DNA of 64,000 nt, taken from UHGV virus genome UHGV-0310767; one strand, written 5' to 3'. A model generated the notes under the pieces. The model had not been told where the DNA came from and ran no database searches. It saw nothing but the letters and a program-made list of their open reading frames with translations. The DNA is from a virus. Below, one piece after another: positions 5,103 through 61,596 of the stretch. Position 1 is the first letter of the stretch. Each line of letters begins with the position of its first letter. A program made the translations under genes and the position numbers.

Positions 5103-6200
5103 TTATTTTAATCTTATTAAAACAACACCTGAACCTCCTGTAGAAATATATCCTTGATAATTTCCACCAGCACCACCGCCCGTATTAGTTCCTCCGTTAC
5201 CAGCTTGCCAACTGCCATTAGAACCTCCACCGCCGCCCCCGGCACCGCCGCCACCAGGGCTTCCTCCACTTCTTCCAAAACCACCACCACCACCACCGCC
5301 TGAATATATAGTTCCATTAGATTCCCCAAACGCTCTTGTAGTAGAACCTTGACCTAGGCCACCACCACCAGAACCACCTTGTCTACCTGCTGAATTAAAT
5401 CTAGGGTTTCCATCTCCACCATTAGCACTACATAATGTACTACTTCCTTTTTTTACAGTGGTAGTTCCTCCTTTATTACCTCCATATCCACCTCCACCAA
5501 TAGTTATAGATAACACATCTTTTTCAGCTACAGTTATATTATTAACAGTTTTGGTATATCCTGCACCGCCACCACCATTAGCATAATAACTAGAATCCCC
5601 ATATTCACTACCACCACCTCCGCCAACACAGAAAACATCTATTTTAGAATATCCTGCTGGAATTGTGTAATTAGAAGTTGCTTTGATAGTAATTATCTGA
5701 GAACTACCTGTATTTACTGTAGCTTTTAATTGTGTTCCTAAGATTTCCCCATTGGATGTTACACAATAAGAGTAAACAATGAAGTAATACATAGTATCAA
5801 GAGAAGGAAGGGATAAAGCTGTTGTAGATATCCCTCCACTCTCTTGTGATGTTCCTACTCCCTTGTACCCTTCTATACCTGTATCTGGTGTAGGATAGGA
5901 ACCTGTTTGATATCGGATATATACTCCACTATAAGGTCTACCTAGTTCTTCAATAGGATTAGTCCATTGGACTGTAATATTTCTACCACTAGAAACAGAC
6001 AAAATTAAATTGCTTACATTTCCTGGCTCTAGGGTGCCTGTTAGTGAATTTTTGGGGTCTACAGTGTAAAACGTAGTACCTTTGGTTACATGGTTTTTTA
6101 CAGCATCACCTGTCAACTGTAAGGAACCAGTCTCTACATCGTCTGTACTGGCCCCTACGAATTTGTAACCATCCATAACAACGGATGAATCGGCTGTCAA
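5103..6200 (-). CDS. glycine-rich protein with FN3-like domain (fibre-like)
   Basis: 365 aa; ITVQWTNP...YIRY FN3-like segment then long GGGGxG tracts; C-terminus GGSGVVLIRLK. Confidence 0.5.
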   Translation of the reverse strand: MTADSSVVMDGYKFVGASTDDVETGSLQLTGDAVKNHVTKGTTFYTVDPKNSLTGTLEPGNVSNLILSVSSGRNITVQWTNPIEELGRPYSGVYIRYQTGSYPTPDTGIEGYKGVGTSQESGGISTTALSLPSLDTMYYFIVYSYCVTSNGEILGTQLKATVNTGSSQIITIKATSNYTIPAGYSKIDVFCVGGGGGSEYGDSSYYANGGGGAGYTKTVNNITVAEKDVLSITIGGGGYGGNKGGTTTVKKGSSTLCSANGGDGNPRFNSAGRQGGSGGGGLGQGSTTRAFGESNGTIYSGGGGGGGFGRSGGSPGGGGAGGGGGGSNGSWQAGNGGTNTGGGAGGNYQGYISTGGSGVVLIRLK

Positions 6201-6262
6201 GCTATCAGGTATGCCCCCCAGTTGGGAAGCGGTTTAGTATTGGCATCTTAATCTCCTTTATT

Positions 6263-7305: not shown

Positions 7306-8818
7306 TATTTATTATTGTCCTTTCTACACTCAATGGAGAATTGAATTGATTGGTACAAAATATATCTTCTGTTCTACCCGTTCCTAAGTCTATATACTGC
7401 CATACTTTAACACCTTGACCATACATAGAAAATCTGGTTTTATAATTATGAGTAATATGGGTAGGCCGCTTACATGTACCAAATCCTTTACGATTTAATA
7501 ATGTATCTACTAATTCCATTTCTTTAGGTCTTAAAGGAAGGATAATCCCTCCATCATCTAATTTAGTTTTAATCTGTTTTGAACCAAAAATACAATTTTC
7601 GTCAATAATATCATTGACAGATTCTTTTCCGTTAAGCTGAGTACCACTATAAGTTCCTATATCATATTCTTCTGATAATGATTTAAGAACTTTTGCAATC
7701 TCAAACAATACCATATCTTGACGAATAGGTGTACTGACTCTTTGTTTGTATTCGCTACCAAATTCTGAGTTATCCCAAATATAATCAAAGAAACAATATT
7801 TTGCACCCCATAAAAAACATTGCCTATAAATATCCTTTAACTTTGGCGTGGTAAAATCTGGCTGGTTAAAAATTTCAATATGAGATTCATATAAAATTTT
7901 TCCTGCTTCCAGTAATCTTTCTTTTTCTATTTTATTATAATTTCCATTAAGTATCCTATGATAAGGAATACCACTAATCCAAGAAATAAATTTAGGCTGT
8001 ACCTCCGTTTTCTGTTGCATTTCTGTGTGAATCATAAAACCGTCACCATCACGATTAGGATTATCTACATATCTTTCTTCTTTGTAATCCCAATACTTAG
8101 TGGCGCATACGTTGCACAAATCTCCTATAGTTGTGGTTGTTTTGCCCCCTCCACTTCCACCAGACCTCAATAATAAATGTCCTTGTTGCCATCCTCGATA
8201 AAAAGTATTCATATAAGGAGATTGTAACATAGCACCCATAACAGGATTACTTTCAAATTCAAGTAATGTATTTTCCCAATCAGCACCAGCCCTCATAGTT
8301 TCTTTACATAATTCTGTATCGTACTTCATGTTAAGCTTATCAGTTTTCTCACTAATTTTAGTCAACATTTTCTTTATATCAAATAAATTAAGATTCTCTC
8401 TTTGACTTTCTTCTGTTTTATCTTCATCATAAAATGAAGTTATATCAATTCCTAAATCTTTGGCATCTCTCAATAAACTATATTTTCTTACAATATTGTA
8501 ATGCAATTCATAATTATCTGGATTTACCAATTGTTTTGCAGTTGATATAAAATCCAAATAATTATTATCCATACATACTTCTAATTGCGAAGGATAATTT
8601 TGTAAGAATTTATCCAATATTATTTCATCTATTTCTTCTGCGCCATTTTTAAACAACCATGCAATAGATTTAAATAATATTTCATGAAATAGAATAGGTT
8701 TAAAATCATCTGAACAAATAGGAAATTTTCTACTTGTGACCAAAGAAGGATTTTGAAACAATATTCCTAATACCATAGAACTGTCAGAAGCAGAATAAAG
8801 CATTATAAATCCTCCCAT
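7298..8818 (-). CDS. replicative DNA helicase, DnaB-like
   Basis: 506 aa; DnaB N-terminal domain pattern (VLGILFQNP...DFKPILFHEILF...EEIDEIIL); Walker A GGSGGGKTT; Walker B FFDYIWDN. Confidence 0.65.
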   Translation of the reverse strand: MGGFIMLYSASDSSMVLGILFQNPSLVTSRKFPICSDDFKPILFHEILFKSIAWLFKNGAEEIDEIILDKFLQNYPSQLEVCMDNNYLDFISTAKQLVNPDNYELHYNIVRKYSLLRDAKDLGIDITSFYDEDKTEESQRENLNLFDIKKMLTKISEKTDKLNMKYDTELCKETMRAGADWENTLLEFESNPVMGAMLQSPYMNTFYRGWQQGHLLLRSGGSGGGKTTTTIGDLCNVCATKYWDYKEERYVDNPNRDGDGFMIHTEMQQKTEVQPKFISWISGIPYHRILNGNYNKIEKERLLEAGKILYESHIEIFNQPDFTTPKLKDIYRQCFLWGAKYCFFDYIWDNSEFGSEYKQRVSTPIRQDMVLFEIAKVLKSLSEEYDIGTYSGTQLNGKESVNDIIDENCIFGSKQIKTKLDDGGIILPLRPKEMELVDTLLNRKGFGTCKRPTHITHNYKTRFSMYGQGVKVWQYIDLGTGRTEDIFCTNQFNSPLSVERTIINNE

Positions 8819-9465
8819 TTCTTTATTTCTTTTATTGGCTTCTTTTTTGTGATTTTTACTATTCTATCACCTTCTTCCATAGTATTTACCATTTTTTGGA
8901 TTTCTTGTTTTTCATAATAAAATTTCTTAGCTTCTTCATAATATCGAGGAAAGATTTGGCCTAAGCCATAATCTGGATTCCAAGAATTTTGTAAAGTTTC
9001 AAACCAATATTGAAGGGTTAAAACCATTCCTGTCCATTTAAAATTATACTTGTCATGGTACATTCCTGCCTGTCTTTGAATGGAAGGATAATCACATTGT
9101 TTTACAGTAATATCAAAGTAAACATAATCTAAAAATGTTTCTTCCCAATAAGCTTCACTGCCTTTATATTTACTTTCATATTCTTGTTCTGAACAATAAT
9201 AATATCTTTCTTTTACGGCAAAAGCTTTCTCTCTTGCAATTCTTTTACCGCAACAGCGGCAAGTTACTATGCCATCTGCCGCTGTGCTATTAATTTTTCT
9301 TCCTTTATTAGTTTGAAGTTCATTATTATAACAATCTTCATTGCAGTAATAACTTCTAGGTTTTGTAGGATGCGGAAAAGCCTGTATCTTATTTATTTTT
9401 TCTCCACAATACTTACATTTTACCTGTATCCCTTTTGATTGTTTAGGATTTAAATTATCTGCCAA
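8803..9465 (-). CDS. zinc-finger (FCS/MYM-like) protein
   Basis: 220 aa; two C-x2-C ... YYC(N/S)E(D/Q) modules. Confidence 0.4.
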   Translation of the reverse strand: MADNLNPKQSKGIQVKCKYCGEKINKIQAFPHPTKPRSYYCNEDCYNNELQTNKGRKINSTAADGIVTCRCCGKRIAREKAFAVKERYYYCSEQEYESKYKGSEAYWEETFLDYVYFDITVKQCDYPSIQRQAGMYHDKYNFKWTGMVLTLQYWFETLQNSWNPDYGLGQIFPRYYEEAKKFYYEKQEIQKMVNTMEEGDRIVKITKKKPIKEIKKWEDL

Positions 9466-9522
9466 CTTTCCACCTCCTTAATAATTATTATATCATTTCA
9501 TTTATCTTTTGTCAATATAAAG

Positions 9523-9806
9523 TTAATGGATTCTTATAAGAACTAAACCAGTTCCACCACTACCTCCCATTCCTTCGGCTCTACCACCACTGGATGAAGT
9601 ACGAGAGCCGCCACCGCCCCCACCTCCACCGCCGCCTGTGTTAGCCGCGCCAGCAGTTCCAGAAGAAGCCCCACTACCACTACTTCCTGTACCACCTCTA
9701 CCGCCACCGCCAGAGCCACCGGTTGACCAGTATAGCTTTTATATGACGGTGAACTTCCAGCATTGAAGTCAAATCCGATTATTGAAGGAACCCTCATGTT
9801 CCACAC
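9523..9806 (-). pseudogene. truncated glycine-rich paralog remnant (C-terminal fragment related to 5103..6200)
   Basis: frame ending at TAA 9523 encodes ...GGSGGGGRGG...GGGGGGGGGG...GGSGGTGLVLIRIH, cf. ...GGSGVVLIRLK of 5103..6200; in-frame stop at 9739; the ORF-track frame (valine-rich) is an artifact. Confidence 0.4.
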
Positions 9807-9920
9807 TACTTTACAGCAGTATTCTCCTTATACCAGGTACAGAGGGTGACTTAATCAGGAATTTTCAACTTCTGCCCAGCATAGATGATAGTACCCTTGA
9901 TGCCGTTCAGGTTGGCAATC

Positions 9921-11305
9921 TCAGGCCAGCGCTTTCTGTTTCAAAGCAGTAACCTTGTTCTTTGTCGGTATCATTTGCGAAAACACCTTCATAAGAACTT
10001 GTTTTACAATACTGTTACCAGCTTGCTTATAGAGTTGGGTGTTGCTGTTCACAGAAGCAGCTTTCCAGTAATCTTCATCTGTGAAACCCATCAACCTCCA
10101 ACACTCAAGTGGTGTCAGCTTACGAATACGAATGAGATACAATTCTCCGTTAATCTCATAGATGAATTTGTGAAACTGCTCTGGAATTTCGTTTGCAAGT
10201 CTGCTTTCTAACAGAAAGTTATCCTTCTGTACAGTAGTTATAGTGTTGCAAACACCATCTAATCTAGGTTCGGCTTCTCTGTGTTCGTTATAGCCGTGGT
10301 GTACTTCTCCGGCTTCATACGCTTTTCTAAGACGTTTTCCTTTTCTTGTAGAACTTGAACCACAGTTTGATGTTAGAGTGGTCATTGTTTTCTGGTCTCT
10401 ATGAAACCCAATTCTCTTACATTCAATGGCTGCATTGCTACCGTAGTTGCTGAGTCCCTTGTAATCTCTGGACAAGAGTGTGGCTGCAACATCTGTTTGT
10501 CTTGCATCAGGTGTTCTGGCTTCATCGGAACTTCCGCAGTTACGCAAGATGATACCATCCCCCCCTGTTCAAGGAACGGAACTATCTTCCCAGAGAATAC
10601 CAGCTTATCAACAAGGTCTTTGGCTTTTTCGGATGTAAGATAGTATTTGTCCTCAACCTGAGGTTCAAGGAAATCAGCCATAACAGTTGTGAGAGGTTCA
10701 ATCTCCGGGAAAATGAACTCATAATCCCCTAAAATGCTTACTGCAATACAGCGATTTCTTGATTGGGGTATTCCATAGTTCATTGCGTTAAGGTCTTGCC
10801 AGAAAGTCTTATATCCTCTTGACTCAAGGTAATTAAGCCAGTTTTCAAAGTCTGGCATATTCTTCTTAGAGTGAACTTGAGGAACATTTTCCATAACCAG
10901 AACTTGCGGTAATTGCTCAGTTTCGTTAAGCAAACGCTCAACTTCCCACAAAAGACCAGAGCGTGTACCACTGTCTTTTCTCATACCTTTTCCCTTGCCA
11001 GCCACAGACAAATCTTGACAAGGAAAAGAATATATAAGCAAGTAAGTATAACGGTCTGTGTCAACAATACCAAGGTCTGCCCCTGATATTTTTGTAATAT
11101 CCATCGTTGGAAAGTTGGTTCCATGAATTGCGTTGTAGCTTGCAACCGGGTACTTATCGAACTCAACCACACGGTAGTGTTCAAAATCTACCCCTATGTC
11201 ACGCAATGCCATAGCTTGACTACCTACACCTGCGAACAGTTCAATAAGTCGAATAGGCTTATCAATCTCATATTTCATTAGTGCATCCTCCTCCTTCTTC
11301 CTCAC
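9921..11305 (-). CDS. DNA (cytosine-5) methyltransferase, interrupted by a frameshift at a G7/C7 homopolymer (10559-10565)
   Basis: N-part: FAGVGS (motif I), FPCQDLS (IV), ENV (VI), QSRNR (VIII); C-part: LTPLECWRLMGF (IX), GNSIV (X); frames rejoin if the tract has 8 G; local GC about 45 percent versus about 28 percent backbone. Confidence 0.7.
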
Positions 11306-11472
11306 ACCCCATAAAGGGGTGTGATTTTAGATTTTGAAAGCGGGACGCACACCGGCAGAGAGAGAAGCGGTTTAGTACTGCCATAATTTAACCAATTCCT
11401 TTCTTTATTTTTTTGATTGACAAGTTACATTTTATAAAAATAATCCCTCCACCAAACGGCAGAGAGATTAAT

Positions 11473-11811
11473 CTATCTCAACACGATTGGAGATATAACA
11501 TCAGGCGCAAATTCATCAAAGAAAGTGACTCCAATTATTTTGATATGCTCACAAGTTTTAAGAACTAAAACATCGTCATAAGCATCCAAATAATATTTGA
11601 ATTTTTCTTCCATGTTTTCTGCCATATTAATTATAATCTCAGGTTTTTTTAATCTATCGTCTTTTATAATAACAGCAATAAACTTATAATCATTTTCCAT
11701 TGCTATTAAAAAATAATTGACGAAAGATTCTCGGCTAATGTATGGATTAGCTACATTACTTTTTTTCTTTGGTTTTGGTTTACGATAAGGATAATAACCA
11801 CTTACTCCCAT
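11473..11811 (-). CDS. hypothetical protein
   Basis: 112-aa ORF. Confidence 0.35.
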   Translation of the reverse strand: MGVSGYYPYRKPKPKKKSNVANPYISRESFVNYFLIAMENDYKFIAVIIKDDRLKKPEIIINMAENMEEKFKYYLDAYDDVLVLKTCEHIKIIGVTFFDEFAPDVISPIVLR

Positions 11812-12854
11812 TATTCATCCTCCACTACAATTCCTCTGTCACAAGCAAAATCCACCAAAGTATTATAAATACTTTCCAGACAAGAAACTTCTTCGTCCGT
11901 GGCAGATGTTACAGTACGATTTTTACCTAACTGTCCATAAACCACATCATTTACAAAATCTGGATAAGGTTTATATAATCTAGCGATATAAGGTTTGATT
12001 AATTCAATCCAATCCTCTTTTGTATGTGCTGTATCTGTCACAGAAAATGTAGTTAATCCAACATTTTCATCTTCCGCTGATTTAATAATAGCTTTTTCCA
12101 TAGCTTCACACATATTAGCCGCTGTAAATGGGTCAATATAAGTCTGCATTGCATAACGGCTTCTTGCGAATACATGAGATGTTTCTTTACAAATTCCAGT
12201 AGACTTAATAGTCATATTTGTTTCTGGGTCAACACCATTTGCCTTTGTATAAATAGTGAAATCACAAATATCACGTATCATACGCATAGAAGATTTTTCA
12301 TTTCCACTTCCTTTTGGCTGTAAATAAGGAATAATTTCACCTGTTAATTCATTGAAATGCTTTTCATCTAATTCCTCATGAGCTATAAAAATAATAAAAT
12401 AACCCATAGACGTAAGTTTATTAATCTGTGTAGCGAACTGCCGTCTGGCTATTTTATAACCATTTGCTTTACCTTCAATTTCAGATAAATCTCTTACTCC
12501 AAAAGTTTTACATACTGACTGTTCACAAAGGTCAACAAGATTTTCTGCTGTATCAATTACAATTGTAAAGAATTTTTCTGACATTTCCTGATAAGTGGAA
12601 GGATTAGTTAGCAAAGATACATAATTTATAAAATCAGCCCATAAATTAACTGGCTTTTTATACCCTCTAATTCCATTTCCACCAGATTCAGTCATTAAGA
12701 GTAAGGCTCTATCACACTTCATGGCCTGGAAGGTTTTGCCTGTAGAATTTTTGCCATAAATTAAAACTTTTTGTCCTGCTAACCCACCAACCATATCCTC
12801 AATCTCTAAATCTAATAATGGATTTGATTTCTTTTTCTCAGTTTTTTCTGACAT
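11811..12854 (-). CDS. AAA_24-like P-loop ATPase (Sak4-type)
   Basis: 347 aa; Walker A GKNSTGKT, Walker B-like IVIDTAE. Confidence 0.45.
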   Translation of the reverse strand: MSEKTEKKKSNPLLDLEIEDMVGGLAGQKVLIYGKNSTGKTFQAMKCDRALLLMTESGGNGIRGYKKPVNLWADFINYVSLLTNPSTYQEMSEKFFTIVIDTAENLVDLCEQSVCKTFGVRDLSEIEGKANGYKIARRQFATQINKLTSMGYFIIFIAHEELDEKHFNELTGEIIPYLQPKGSGNEKSSMRMIRDICDFTIYTKANGVDPETNMTIKSTGICKETSHVFARSRYAMQTYIDPFTAANMCEAMEKAIIKSAEDENVGLTTFSVTDTAHTKEDWIELIKPYIARLYKPYPDFVNDVVYGQLGKNRTVTSATDEEVSCLESIYNTLVDFACDRGIVVEDE

Positions 12855-18393: not shown

Positions 18394-18753
18394 TTAAAAC
18401 CGATTTAGATTTTATATATCTAAAAACCAATTTAAATTTTCTGATATCTTATATATTATATATCAACAATTATTTTAAAACCTATTATGCCATTCTCTAC
18501 ATAATAAGGAATAATAGAATTATACTCTGTGGTACATATTACCCTTAACATACATTCGGCATAATCTTTACCTGTCATATCACAAATTCTTCCTTTGTAT
18601 AAAGTTTCACCCCCCCACATACATTAAGATGAAGCCCTCTTGTGTCTAAATTAGATGAATAACTTTTGTTCTTGTGAATAAAGACATAAGTATTACTATC
18701 TAATTTATTTAATATATCCACTAAAAATATACTTTCCATAAATTTTCCTTTCT

Positions 18754-29869: not shown

Positions 29870-31450
29870 TATATTATAATAGATTATATATAATGATGGG
29901 ATTAATAAGTGAATATGATAAGTGGAAGTGCTTACAAATTGTGTGGGAATTGTGTAGGATTATGTAAACCTTTATGTTAGCACTGTCAATAGGTGAGTGC
30001 CAAAAGGTAAGTAAATGATTACAATAAGTATGTGGTGATTATCGACAACGATTTATATTTTGTGGCTGTGAATTGTAAATAGGGATTCATAATTCATAGT
30101 GGATGATAGTAAACACTTGCTTACTATATGGAGAGGGCAGAGGTACATATAATATAATATTATATAATATATAATATGAAAATGAAAATAGGAATCGTTA
30201 TCAATATGTTTCACGTGGAACAATAGGTGGGGAATATGGATGAATGTGTGAGCGTGCAGAGGATGGTATAAAGGAGTACAGAGATGTTACAAGGGCGTGT
30301 ATGGGGTGATGTGGACAATTGTGTAGGGATGGGGTGATTGTGGGTATATGGGCGTTGTACTGCGTGATAGGGAAGATGGGAGATTGAGGGATGGAGAATG
30401 TAAGGGGATTGTGGGGAGAATGTGGGGATAGGGTGGATGGAGATAAGGGAGAGTGTAGGATATGTGAGTGAGAGGATGGAGAAAATGGAATGGGAAGATA
30501 TAGGAAAGTATAGGGTGAGAGGTGGGAAGTGTAGGGAGATATGGGAGAGGTGAGAGTGGGAGAATGTGGGTGAATGTATCTCATATTTTGAGGGTTCGCC
30601 ATTACCCTATTATAATATATACATATGTACTCTGTGACATTTCGGACGGACTGAAAACGCTTTCAACCAATACTTTTCATTAGGTAGCGTCAAAAAATTA
30701 ACAAAAACTCAAGGTTTTACCTTAAAAGTGTACATAATATGTATTATGGACGCTTTTTGGATATGGATACACCAACTGCGCATCCCCCCATTCCCCGGCC
30801 TTTTGGCAATTGTCAGAAAATTCACCTTAGATGGGGGGGTACTTTCAGACAATTCGGATATACGAATTTCAAGAATGAGGTATAGCTGTCCCACCACGAA
30901 CTATTTCACTATCTCACCCTCCATCTCATTTATTAATATATATTAATATACTATTATATATTATATTTATATATACCCCTCTATCCCCCTCCTATCTCCC
31001 CTCTCCTATCCATCTCCCACTCAACACATCCCCTACCCTTCCCCCATACTTTTAAAATTTAATTTTAACTCTACACCCTATCCCTTACACTACTATAATT
31101 TATACCACTCCCCTCAGTTTCCCCTATACCTTTCCCTACACTTTTAATCTTCCCTACTCAACTGCACTTTTTATCAATACTTCCGCACCTTGCCTACCTC
31201 AACTTTTTCAATCTCCATTGACGGCAACTCCAATTTTTTCATAAATCACTTCTACGCCTTACACTTTTTAGTAGCACCCCTCTAATTTTCATAACAATTC
31301 AGTACCACTTTTAACCACCCCAAAATTGAGCAAAATTTCTCAAAAATTTTTTGATGCCACCCAAATTTTGGAATCTTAAGCCCCATTCTGATTTGAGCGG
31401 ATTGTGGTGTGATTCTGTCTGGTTACAACCTCATACACGCCATATCTGGC
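29870..31450. other. strand-asymmetric noncoding block: plus strand G/A/T-rich and nearly C-free (about 29870-30600, pure over about 30370-30588), ~350-bp centre, then C/A/T-rich and nearly G-free (about 30960-31450)
   Basis: direct reading of base composition; G3+ tract clusters (e.g. gggatggggtgattgtgggtatatggg); C7...G7 inverted tracts at the centre (about 30786-30850). Confidence 0.6.
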
Positions 31451-60761: not shown

Positions 60762-61208
60762 ATGAAACTTACATTTAAACATTTAGTGGATGCTTATAAG
60801 GAATACGAAAGTATTCAAAGTAGTTATAAGGGGGAGAAAACAGATTGGTATGAAGTCCATTTAAGACTTTACAATCTTAAGAAAAGTTTGAATTGGGAAA
60901 TGTCCCAATCTAATAATTTTTCTTTTAATCTTTTTATTAAAAGAAGTTTAATGAATTTGTTTGAAGAAGAATATAATCGTATAACTATTATTATTGATGA
61001 ATTGGAAAAACGGGACAGAGAAAAAATGGAACTTAATAAAAGATTCTGTCCCAAATGTGGAAATCGGTTATCTTTTTCACGTAAAAGAATTAATGGAATA
61101 TCGAAATATGTTTGTGAATGTGAACATTGTCAATATCAACCAAAATGTGAAGCTGGTATGTCTTTAGAAGAGGCTGTGTGGTATTTTGATGCATGGCTTA
61201 ACCTTTAA
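60762..61208 (+). CDS. hypothetical zinc-ribbon protein
   Basis: 148 aa; CPKCGN...CECEHC. Confidence 0.4.
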   Translation: MKLTFKHLVDAYKEYESIQSSYKGEKTDWYEVHLRLYNLKKSLNWEMSQSNNFSFNLFIKRSLMNLFEEEYNRITIIIDELEKRDREKMELNKRFCPKCGNRLSFSRKRINGISKYVCECEHCQYQPKCEAGMSLEEAVWYFDAWLNL

Positions 61209-61239
61209 ACCAAATTACATAAATAAGGAGATATTTTTT

Positions 61240-61596
61240 ATGGAATACAAACAGCGTATTAATCGTGGAGATGTTTTTTATGCAGATTTACGTCCTATTG
61301 TCGGAAGTGAACAGGGGGGGATTCGCCCCGTATTAGTATTACAGAATAATGTAGGAAATAAATTTAGTCCTACTATTATAGTTGTTCCTTTGACAACTAA
61401 ACCCAAAAAGTGTTTACCTATGCACCATGTTATAAATAAAGGCAAATATGATTTTCTTTTAGCTGATAGTGTAGCATTGGTGGAACAGATAAGAAGTATT
61501 GATAGAAGCCGATTTAAGGAATGGATTGGTTCATTATCAGGCTGGGATGTTGAACAAATTTATAGAAAGGCTATTATCAATTTGGCTAGAGACTAA
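61240..61596 (+). CDS. mazF: MazF/PemK/EndoA-family endoribonuclease toxin
   Basis: start ATG 61240 with AAGGAG RBS; RGDVFYADLRPIVGSEQGGIRPVLVLQNNVGNKFSPTIIVVPLTT closely matches the conserved MazF/EndoA motif. Confidence 0.8.
   Translation: MEYKQRINRGDVFYADLRPIVGSEQGGIRPVLVLQNNVGNKFSPTIIVVPLTTKPKKCLPMHHVINKGKYDFLLADSVALVEQIRSIDRSRFKEWIGSLSGWDVEQIYRKAIINLARD

Follow-up and report, generated by a model that had tools for sequence, protein, structure and literature searches.

DNA methyltransferases (MTases) carried by phages are usually viewed as fixed anti-restriction cargo, and phase-variable MTases as a trait of bacterial pathogens. Here, we focus on a gene that bears on both views: a cytosine-5 (C5) MTase gene on the minus strand of the virus genome UHGV-0310767, at positions 9921–11278 of a stretch of 64,000 nucleotides (termed the window, with position 1 as its first letter), whose reading frame changes within a run of seven G residues (G7). 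The locus belongs to a virulent phage that infects a common gut commensal, and a slippery tract appears to govern expression of the C5-MTase. Judged from the sequence and its relatives, the gene is probably a phase-variable orphan C5-MTase caught in its OFF state in a phage resembling PMBT24, and a deletion derivative of a family of enzymes with multiple target recognition domains (TRDs).

The closest described systems fall on either side of this locus. Among the CpG-specific C5-MTases of Mycoplasma, those of M. agalactiae, M. pulmonis and M. crocodyli carry poly(G) or poly(GA) midway along the gene, and in M. agalactiae a mid-gene poly(G) of 6–11 G drives demonstrated phase variation (PMC9465063). 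The MTases of phasevarions include Type III mod genes, Type I hsdS and hsdM genes with repeats and Campylobacter cj0031 (PMC7383803, PMC4889913). On the phage side, the multispecific C5-MTases of Bacillus phages are built from a core and tandem TRDs (Trautner et al. 1996 EMBO J 15:1434, cited in PMC12707154).

The methyltransferase gene and its G tract

The predicted product is a DNA (cytosine-5) methyltransferase of the PF00145 Dcm type, and its coding region is divided between two open reading frames (ORFs), both of which match PF00145 in Pfam. The upstream ORF (10382–11305, minus strand; 307 amino acids (aa) counted from a GTG) covers profile positions 2–209 of 324 with E = 1.1e-44, and the downstream ORF (9921–10547, minus strand; 208 aa) covers positions 234–322 with E = 7.3e-11. 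Translation likely begins at the ATG at 11278 (MKYEID), which has an AGGAGG-type ribosome-binding site upstream, and not at the GTG at 11305; the intact enzyme is therefore taken to be 452 aa long and the N-terminal ORF 298 aa. The window's N-terminal ORF is identical to proteins P0009 and P0149, the latter (from JGI/IMG, on a contig of 106,342 bp) being equal to the window ORF from the GTG. The parts of the gene are as follows.

9921–11278, minus strand: whole C5-cytosine methyltransferase coding region, in two frames in the window and a single 452-aa ORF with eight G (G8)
10382–11278, minus strand: N-terminal ORF of the G7 allele, 298 aa plus stop; catalytic core motifs I–VIII, then 58 out-of-frame residues (MVSS...ETRKQ)
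10559–10565, minus strand: poly-G tract, G7 (C7 on the plus strand), at the junction of catalytic core and recognition region
10422–10558, minus strand: TRD1 module, (D)GIILRNCGSSDE...ATLLSRDYKGLSNYGSNAAIE, in the frame of the core only if the tract is G8 or G5
10338–10397, minus strand: remnant of a TRD4 module, DQKTMTTLTSNCGSSSTRKG, seen by comparison with the long allele of contigs L008 and L218
10206–10337, minus strand: TRD5 module, KRLRKAYEAG...GVCNTITTVQKDNFLLE; homologous modules occur in other combinations elsewhere in the family (for example in P0023 and L012)
9921–10205, minus strand: conserved C-terminal part, with motif IX (10083–10124), motif X (10005–10019) and the stop codon (9921–9923)
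9921–10385, minus strand: possible separate downstream ORF of the G7 allele, 154 aa (MTTLTSN...), whose ATG overlaps the upstream stop as ATGA

Motifs I (FAGVGS, 11219–11236), IV (FPCQDLS, 11006–11026), VI (ENVPQV, 10874–10891) and VIII (QSRNR, 10751–10765) lie in the first frame and motifs IX (RKLTPLECWRLMGF) and X (GNSIV) in the second, in the order that is canonical for a Dcm-type DNA (cytosine-5) methyltransferase. The original prediction, made from the sequence alone, had placed the division exactly at the G7 tract, and both the sequence and the PF00145 matches of the two ORFs agree. It had also counted all ten C5-MTase motifs, of which the six above were placed individually, and had expected one additional G to yield a continuous enzyme of about 480 aa; the continuity holds, and the length is corrected to 452 aa by the start at 11278.

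The G7 tract encodes the third base of a Gln codon and both Gly codons of ...EQGG (...FLEQGG), and the gain of one G or the loss of two joins the two frames as ...FLEQGGDGIILRNCGSS.... Since it lies inside the reading frame, the length of the tract sets the frame of everything downstream, in the manner of a contingency locus: the product is 452 aa with G8, 298 aa with G7, 246 aa with G9 and 245 aa with G6. In the G7 allele translation runs for 58 codons out of the TRD1 frame and stops at 10382, before motifs IX–X, the DNA of TRD1 being free of stop codons in the frame of the core as well. The 154-aa downstream ORF was annotated by gene callers on L004 and L005, two contigs identical to the window. 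Once repaired to G8, the translation is 100% identical over its full length to protein P0001, which is encoded on four other contigs (one of 105,872 bp) that share the phage context of the window; the tract is the sole lesion between the window gene and this intact protein. Only four runs of at least seven G or C occur in the 64-kb window, a number that exceeds the approximately 0.3 predicted from base composition by our own arithmetic.

Tract variation and selection

Near-identical contigs differ in the length of the tract. Contigs L004 and L005 are 100% identical to the window over 4.1 kb, G7 included, while L002 differs from it by one mismatch and G8 over 4.1 kb and L003 likewise over the 3.3 kb that it covers; L002 and L003 both encode the intact 452-aa P0001. 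At the DNA level, G7 is found in the window, L004, L005, L007 and L008, G8 in L002, L003, L006, L010 and L218–L221, and G9 in L215–L217, which come from three different ENA assembly records. These three states are seen in DNA with identical flanks; a G6 allele is deduced from protein P0147. Four backbones, distinguished by insertions and deletions (indels), are each known in at least two tract states, with G7 and G8 on all four:

452-aa backbone: G8 in P0001; G7 in P0009 and P0149
399-aa backbone: G8 in P0003; G7 in P0129 and P0153
387-aa backbone: G8 in P0005; G7 in P0128
Long backbone: G8 in P0006; G7 in P0017; G9 in P0141; G6 in P0147

Because every backbone has at least two states, the length of the tract has changed repeatedly and independently, and a single fixed lesion does not fit this recurrence. 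By this comparison the tract is hypermutable and not the site of a one-off lesion. When G7 and G8 contigs from one sample were sought, no sample accession was found in common among the contigs retrieved.

The remainder of the gene is conserved. The ratio of nonsynonymous to synonymous substitution (dN/dS), computed for the window against L008, L009, L011, L012 and L090, is 0.05–0.19 for the N-terminal core, TRD1 and the C-terminus, with a range of 0.00–0.19 for TRD1 and of 0.05–0.07 for the C-terminal part where it could be calculated; by this measure, purifying selection acts on the MTase coding sequence. Synonymous sites in the core are saturated against L009, L011 and L012 (difference about 0.8), and each of these retains an unbroken run of 7–8 G at the same codons; the tract of L090 is interrupted. 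On these figures, and on the family-wide count of 262 G-tracts against 1 C-tract given below, selection preserves the tract to a degree not expected under neutrality. The five length alleles of the TRD region (387, 392, 399, 432 and 452 aa) all hold the frame downstream of the tract, and those of 452, 399 and 387 aa are confirmed in this phage slot. The window allele itself is a shortened form: the long allele of L008 and L218 comprises TRD1 to TRD5 and a second poly-G tract, whereas in the window TRD1 is joined in frame to the remnant of TRD4, followed by TRD5, the remnant having been left by a deletion that took out TRD2, TRD3 and the second tract. A phase-variable switch was the leading suggestion of the original prediction, which named decay and sequencing error as alternatives and called for the tract to be compared in related genomes, and the comparison of the tract in related genomes favours it, with near-identical contigs carrying either G7 or G8; lengths of G6 to G9 in close alleles, their recurrence on four backbones, the retained tract and purifying selection all lend it support at the level of sequence.

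From these observations we infer how a switch of this kind would operate: its basis in slippage, its rate, the sequences methylated and the advantage it would confer. A PMBT24-like phage acquired a cassette of about 1.6 kb with an orphan C5-cytosine DNA methyltransferase from a family in which hypermutable simple repeats are arranged between the core and the TRDs and between the TRDs themselves; the window copy keeps a single repeat, the G7 tract. Slipped-strand mispairing during replication would alter the length of the tract. G8 (or G5) would constitute the ON state, giving the full 452-aa enzyme with TRD1 and TRD5, and G7, G6 and G9 would be OFF states in which translation ends before motifs IX–X, so that the window would represent an OFF variant a single slippage step away from the ON allele of the near-identical contigs. 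Methylation shields DNA from Type II restriction enzymes yet exposes it to methylation-dependent Type IV enzymes. The likely benefit would be bet-hedging: methylated progeny would escape Type II restriction by the host, while unmethylated progeny would avoid methyl-cytosine-dependent (Type IV) restriction together with the cost of methylation.

Repeats and overlapping frames in the wider family

The family to which the window gene belongs occurs in phages and prophages of gut Firmicutes. A total of 205 related loci were gathered from metagenomes, IMG/VR and GTDB genomes, of which 180 have both the core and motif IX located. The relatives are multi-TRD C5-MTases, in which several recognition modules, combined differently from one enzyme to the next, stand in tandem between a conserved core and motifs IX–X; P0005 has TRD1 alone, while L008 and L012 have five or six modules. 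TRD1, TRD5 and the TRD4 remnant of the window are each homologous to modules that are combined otherwise in relatives, and the window gene thus shares the multi-TRD architecture of the Bacillus phage enzymes. G-tracts in the 180 loci, counted on the coding strand, are distributed as follows.

Variable regions, 174 kb: 262 G-tracts and 1 C-tract of at least six
N-terminal cores, 102 kb: 2 G-tracts and 0 C-tracts of at least six
Flanks, 504 kb: 26 G-tracts and 4 C-tracts of at least six

Tract lengths in the family range from 6 to 11. At sites with identical 30-nt flanks in at least two loci, length varies in 19 of the 31 G-tracts with a modal length of at least seven, in 1 of 15 G5 runs, and in 4 of 89 A runs and 1 of 41 T runs of at least six. 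Among 14 related genes (82–99.6% identical), one of them in the isolate genome of Diplocloster hominis CSJ-3, the small indels all fall at five or six poly-G tracts, except for one 3-nt block. Members that lack poly-G are genuinely frame-split too and carry other repeats: (GACA)n, (AGAGC)n, (AGAAC)n and 7-nt units, in 3 to 19 copies, are among those that occupy the same junction of core and TRD. The repeats that follow the core in L046, L099, L186 and approximately 70 other loci read EQSRA... or DRQT... in all three frames, and the near-identical L057 and L092 are one 5-nt unit apart.

Beyond the repeat, two frames are kept open over the same DNA. A recognition domain termed TRD-X lies in one of them; the +1 frame, which leads to a TRD1-like module, is stop-free in 71 of the 74 distinct sequences with an upstream repeat, and the +2 frame is open in 0 of the 74. 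Of 91 distinct loci, 18 have a core that shares its frame with TRD-X, 54 one that continues into the open alternative frame and 19 one that runs into the closed frame. At the poly-G junction, the alternative frame of TRD1 is stop-free in six TRD1 sequences and only there, five of which follow an intact tract and one, that of L090, the interrupted tract; the other 58 TRD1-like sequences contain one to eight stops in the alternative frame. Read in this way, the window sub-clade shows the same overlapping-frame logic, with poly-G as its repeat. The synonymous difference in TRD1 (window 10422–10558 against L009 and L090) is 0.36–0.39, about half the 0.82–0.85 of the adjacent core; this fits the constraint of overlapping open frames, and recent exchange of the module would explain it too.

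Single ORFs are present in 13 of the 180 loci. When each repeat was changed by one unit, 5 of the 167 broken loci were rescued, the window included, and in 150 of the 180 a single ORF could not be restored by repeat changes. The proposition that all frame breaks in the family are repeat states of a single-chain enzyme was dropped on this count; because one-unit changes rescue so few loci, a split, multi-frame layout is favoured. A 17-mer, GGAGTGATTGAATGGAA, closes the TRD1-like module in 105 of the 180 loci (allowing at most three mismatches). It holds GGAG, 7 nt and ATG, the internal ATG of the family being situated inside GGAGTGATTGAATGG, and this ATG opens an ORF with the remaining TRDs and motifs IX–X that is open to its end in 50 of 103 cases. 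The bases of GGAG and ATG were examined again in sequences selected solely by their protein match: A occupies the four-fold degenerate position that completes GGAG in 96% of them and the base that completes ATG in 99%, while another four-fold site in the module is evenly mixed. The fixed bases point to a selected internal start, and therefore to a two-polypeptide enzyme in the family. The window lineage is without the 17-mer.

These patterns allow a wider proposal, which we advance tentatively: a three-state repeat switch would operate across the family, with the G7 of the window as its last remnant, and would bring about stochastic, combinatorial change of the methylated sequences, beyond simple ON and OFF. 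The repeat after the core, whether poly-G, (GACA)n, (AGAGC)n or a 7-nt unit, would be followed by two alternative TRDs in overlapping frames. One state would fuse the core to the first TRD, another would read the stop-free frame through to the next TRD, and the third would terminate; the remaining TRDs and motifs IX–X would be made as a second subunit from the conserved internal GGAG-plus-ATG start, and further poly-G tracts would gate single downstream TRDs. In such a scheme the G7 allele of the window might still yield a split enzyme with TRD5 only. The window gene is a simple, derived member of this family, in which such repeats are the rule, an origin that the original prediction had not seen; the family as a whole is the more unusual result.

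Further variation is seen in individual members. In an alignment of L188, L148 and L154–L169, TRD modules are gained or lost as indels of 181–182 nt and 190 nt, lengths not divisible by three; in L188 the coding frame shifts at a plain GGG between two poly-G tracts, with no long tract there, and within this group no combination of tract lengths yields a single ORF. MTase homologues P0033, P0117, P0120 and P0061 contain intein/Hint or HNH_3 domains, and the family is therefore also targeted by selfish elements.

Host phage, rival explanations and known systems

Over most of its first 25 kb, the window shares 98% identity with PMBT24, a virulent phage of Enterocloster bolteae (PMC11035940). PMBT24 is without the MTase, and the same slot, which sits between a YorH-like gene and a 112-aa gene inside the replication module, holds a glycine-rich gene (Pfam Gly_rich_2). 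Flanking genes comprise AAA_24, the 112-aa ORF, the YorH-like gene and a DnaB helicase, and the host phage has the SPbeta-like replication genes YorF and YorH. Alignment to PMBT24 runs at 99.8% over 8500–9724 and at 95.9% over 11364–12500; because only 62 bp (9704–9765) aligns between these flanks, a cassette of about 1.6 kb is taken to have replaced the middle of the glycine-rich gene. The following features surround the MTase gene.

About 9766–11363, minus strand: foreign, higher-GC cassette of about 1.6 kb, replacing the middle of a PMBT24-type glycine-rich gene
11364–11384, minus strand: 5′ remnant of the disrupted glycine-rich gene, its first seven codons (MAVLNRF), upstream of the cassette
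11281–11324, minus strand: cassette 5′ leader, with a 9-bp G+C-rich hairpin at 11302–11324 followed by the ribosome-binding site GAAGGAGGAGGA, 5 nt upstream of the ATG
9854–9919, minus strand: C-terminal half of a LysM domain, IANLNGIKGTIIYAGQKLKIPD (PF01476, E = 7.4e-6, profile positions 22–43 of 43)
9523–9765, minus strand: 3′ remnant of the disrupted glycine-rich (Gly_rich_2) gene

The original prediction described an island of about 1.8 kb and 45% GC in a genome of about 28% GC; the island is real, at 43.0% over 9480–11400, and the other figures are revised to 32.0% for the window and about 1.6 kb for the cassette as delimited against PMBT24. The proposal that the MTase is phage-borne and an orphan is upheld by the identity to PMBT24, by the replication genes around it and by the lack of a nuclease: no ORF for a nuclease or cognate restriction endonuclease was found in or beside the cassette, which sets it apart from a Type II restriction-modification system, and the MTase is regarded as an orphan for this reason. 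The phage therefore encodes an MTase without a cognate restriction enzyme. The LysM fragment begins one base past the MTase stop codon, and the MTase ends as ...KALA* in the window and as ...KALALLDF* in relatives; the fragment is a recombination scar and shows the cassette to have come from a locus next to a LysM gene. Among annotated phage records in INPHARED there is no isolated phage with this cassette, the best match being 48% identical (Dulem virus 39). The leader folds with a z-score of −3.2, and the plus strand of its hairpin resembles an intrinsic terminator followed by a T-run, whereas the sense strand does not. The stretch from the upstream terminator (11441–11470) to the MTase gene yielded no convincing promoter on the sense strand.

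Other genes of the phage and its relatives also contain runs of G. The glycine-rich gene of PMBT24 (L001, 4124–5550) is intact but has its own G9 tract after MAVLNRFPT, out of frame as deposited, and only its 3′ part is annotated for this reason; in the IMG/VR relatives L223 and L226 the gene is in frame (G9, then ATA), and L224 and L225 have the out-of-frame version. A second gene with Gly_rich_2 and fn3-like domains (5103–6246, minus strand) starts with MPILNRFPT, followed by a G6 tract at 6214–6219 that puts the ATG out of frame with a body of 376 codons; G5 or G8 would connect the two, and PMBT24 is 100% identical there. This gene is a candidate for repeat control in the same phage. A PemK/MazF-like toxin ORF (61168–61596, plus strand; Pfam E = 5e-28) contains an in-frame G7 at 61314–61320 that encodes the same ...SEQGG... 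peptide as the MTase junction. Elsewhere, a minus-strand ORF of 61 codons has a C7 run (18610–18616) close to its 3′ end, and two runs, C6 (30784–30789) and G7 (30833–30839), stand 44 nt apart in a region without a long ORF.

Several points weigh against the reading of the gene as a phase-variable switch. The cassette is missing from PMBT24 and from five CB-series Enterocloster phages, and is therefore dispensable. The three G7 records of the exact window allele (L004, L005 and P0149) may be assemblies of one sample, which leaves independent replication of this genotype uncertain. The G7 state could also be a stable inherited lesion in the sub-lineage of the window, since the G7 and G8 contigs differ by one single-nucleotide polymorphism as well. 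Finally, the supposed bet-hedging benefit derives from general restriction biology.

Some of these points would suit a plain pseudogene, in which the cassette is decaying cargo and the G7 frameshift its first inactivating lesion; dispensability, the scars (LysM fragment, TRD4 remnant and replaced C-terminus) and the predominance among assembled family members of genes that are not single ORFs all agree with decay. We nevertheless judge a pseudogene to be improbable, given low dN/dS in all parts of the gene, an intact P0001 from which the tract alone separates it, toggling of the same tract on four backbones, retention of the tract despite synonymous saturation, and indels of the TRD region that in this phage lineage are all in frame. 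A sequencing or assembly error, with G8 as the true sequence and the homopolymer miscalled, seems more improbable still. Homopolymers are error-prone, and the G7 records of the exact allele may share one dataset; against this, three separate assemblies of the allele (ENA, Logan and JGI/IMG) have G7, as do different backbones from different samples (P0128, P0129/P0153 and L007/L008), A or T runs of comparable length in these loci hardly ever differ, and the tetra- and pentanucleotide repeats at the equivalent position vary too, which is beyond the reach of homopolymer error.

Two further explanations grant the G7 allele a product. It is unlikely, though less so than decay or error, that G7 acts as a specificity switch and not as an OFF state, with the 298-aa core and the 154-aa fragment of TRD5 and motifs IX–X assembling in the manner of M.AquI, so that TRD5 sites would still be methylated and TRD1 sites lost. 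M.AquI and M.EcoHK31I are natural two-polypeptide C5-MTases, and fragments split in the proximal variable region complement one another (PMC3404938). The ATGA overlap of upstream stop and downstream start agrees with such an assembly, as do the designed appearance of the split layout in the wider family (the 17-mer and its fixed GGAG and ATG bases) and the many loci in which no single ORF can be restored. The overlap in the window, however, came from a deletion junction and may be accidental, the lineage has no 17-mer, no clear ribosome-binding site precedes the internal ATG at 10385, and the core would bear a 58-residue out-of-frame tail. The least credible of the alternatives is recoding, whereby the G7 mRNA would yield the full enzyme at a constitutive low level through programmed −1 frameshifting on G GGG GGG or transcriptional slippage. 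Formally, G GGG GGG matches the X XXY YYZ pattern of a slippery heptamer perfectly, and a −1 shift gives exactly ...QGGDGIIL.... Programmed frameshifting is not supported, as no structure was found downstream, where 89 nt fold no better than shuffled sequence (z = +0.94); variation of the tract in DNA is directly observed and sufficient, and the equivalent repeats in other members are 4–7-nt units, which are not slippery sites.

If a phase-variable MTase is indeed what the locus encodes, epigenetic mixture would be built into phage populations, as a hedge between hosts that use classical restriction and those whose restriction depends on methylation. Many "frameshifted" MTase genes in viromes and metagenome-assembled genomes would then probably be mis-annotated as pseudogenes or as split hypothetical proteins, and prophage copies in commensals, such as that of Diplocloster hominis CSJ-3 (L188), could serve as switchable 5-methylcytosine methylomes of the gut.

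A search of the literature, limited in its coverage and thus weak as evidence of novelty, found neither a phage-borne phase-variable C5-MTase nor TRDs in overlapping frames that are selected by repeats, and an enzyme that is carried by a phage and has its recognition domains chosen by repeats appears not to have been described. Similarities to known systems are nonetheless extensive. The enzymes of Bacillus subtilis phages SPR, phi3T, rho11s, SPbeta and H2 are orphan phage C5-MTases like that of the window, with one core and exchangeable TRDs between motifs VIII and IX, and both they and the window MTase are assumed to act against restriction. To our knowledge, no repeats or frame switching have been described for the Bacillus phage enzymes. 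No isolated phage in INPHARED encodes a protein more than 48% identical to that of the window.

Phasevarions share with this locus an intragenic repeat (poly-G or 4–5-nt units) that shifts the frame and a stochastic switch in methylation, which here is predicted. Their enzymes are N6-adenine MTases of bacterial restriction-modification systems, mostly in host-adapted pathogens, and act as gene regulators, whereas here a C5 enzyme with no nuclease is carried by a phage that infects a gut commensal. For certain Type I hsdS genes, NgoAV among them, a change in poly-G alters specificity rather than abolishing it. The coding sequences of M.AquI and M.EcoHK31I are divided in or near the variable region into polypeptides with motifs I–VIII and IX–X (PMC3404938), and many members of the present family overlap stop and start at the same place. 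M.AquI is a fixed two-gene enzyme of a restriction-modification system; here, in contrast, the split would be one of several states set by a repeat.

The closest parallel is found in Mycoplasma, where, as here, a C5 enzyme has a G tract in mid-gene, the length of which decides between a truncated and a complete product and differs between strains (PMC9465063). The ON/OFF principle is therefore already known, having been documented in M. agalactiae (PMC9465063). The Mycoplasma genes are chromosomal, with the single specificity CpG, and their switching was shown by fragment-length analysis (PMC9465063), whereas the gene described here is cargo of a virulent phage and its switching is deduced from comparison. 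Unlike in Mycoplasma, the tract lies at the junction of core and recognition domains in a multi-TRD enzyme.

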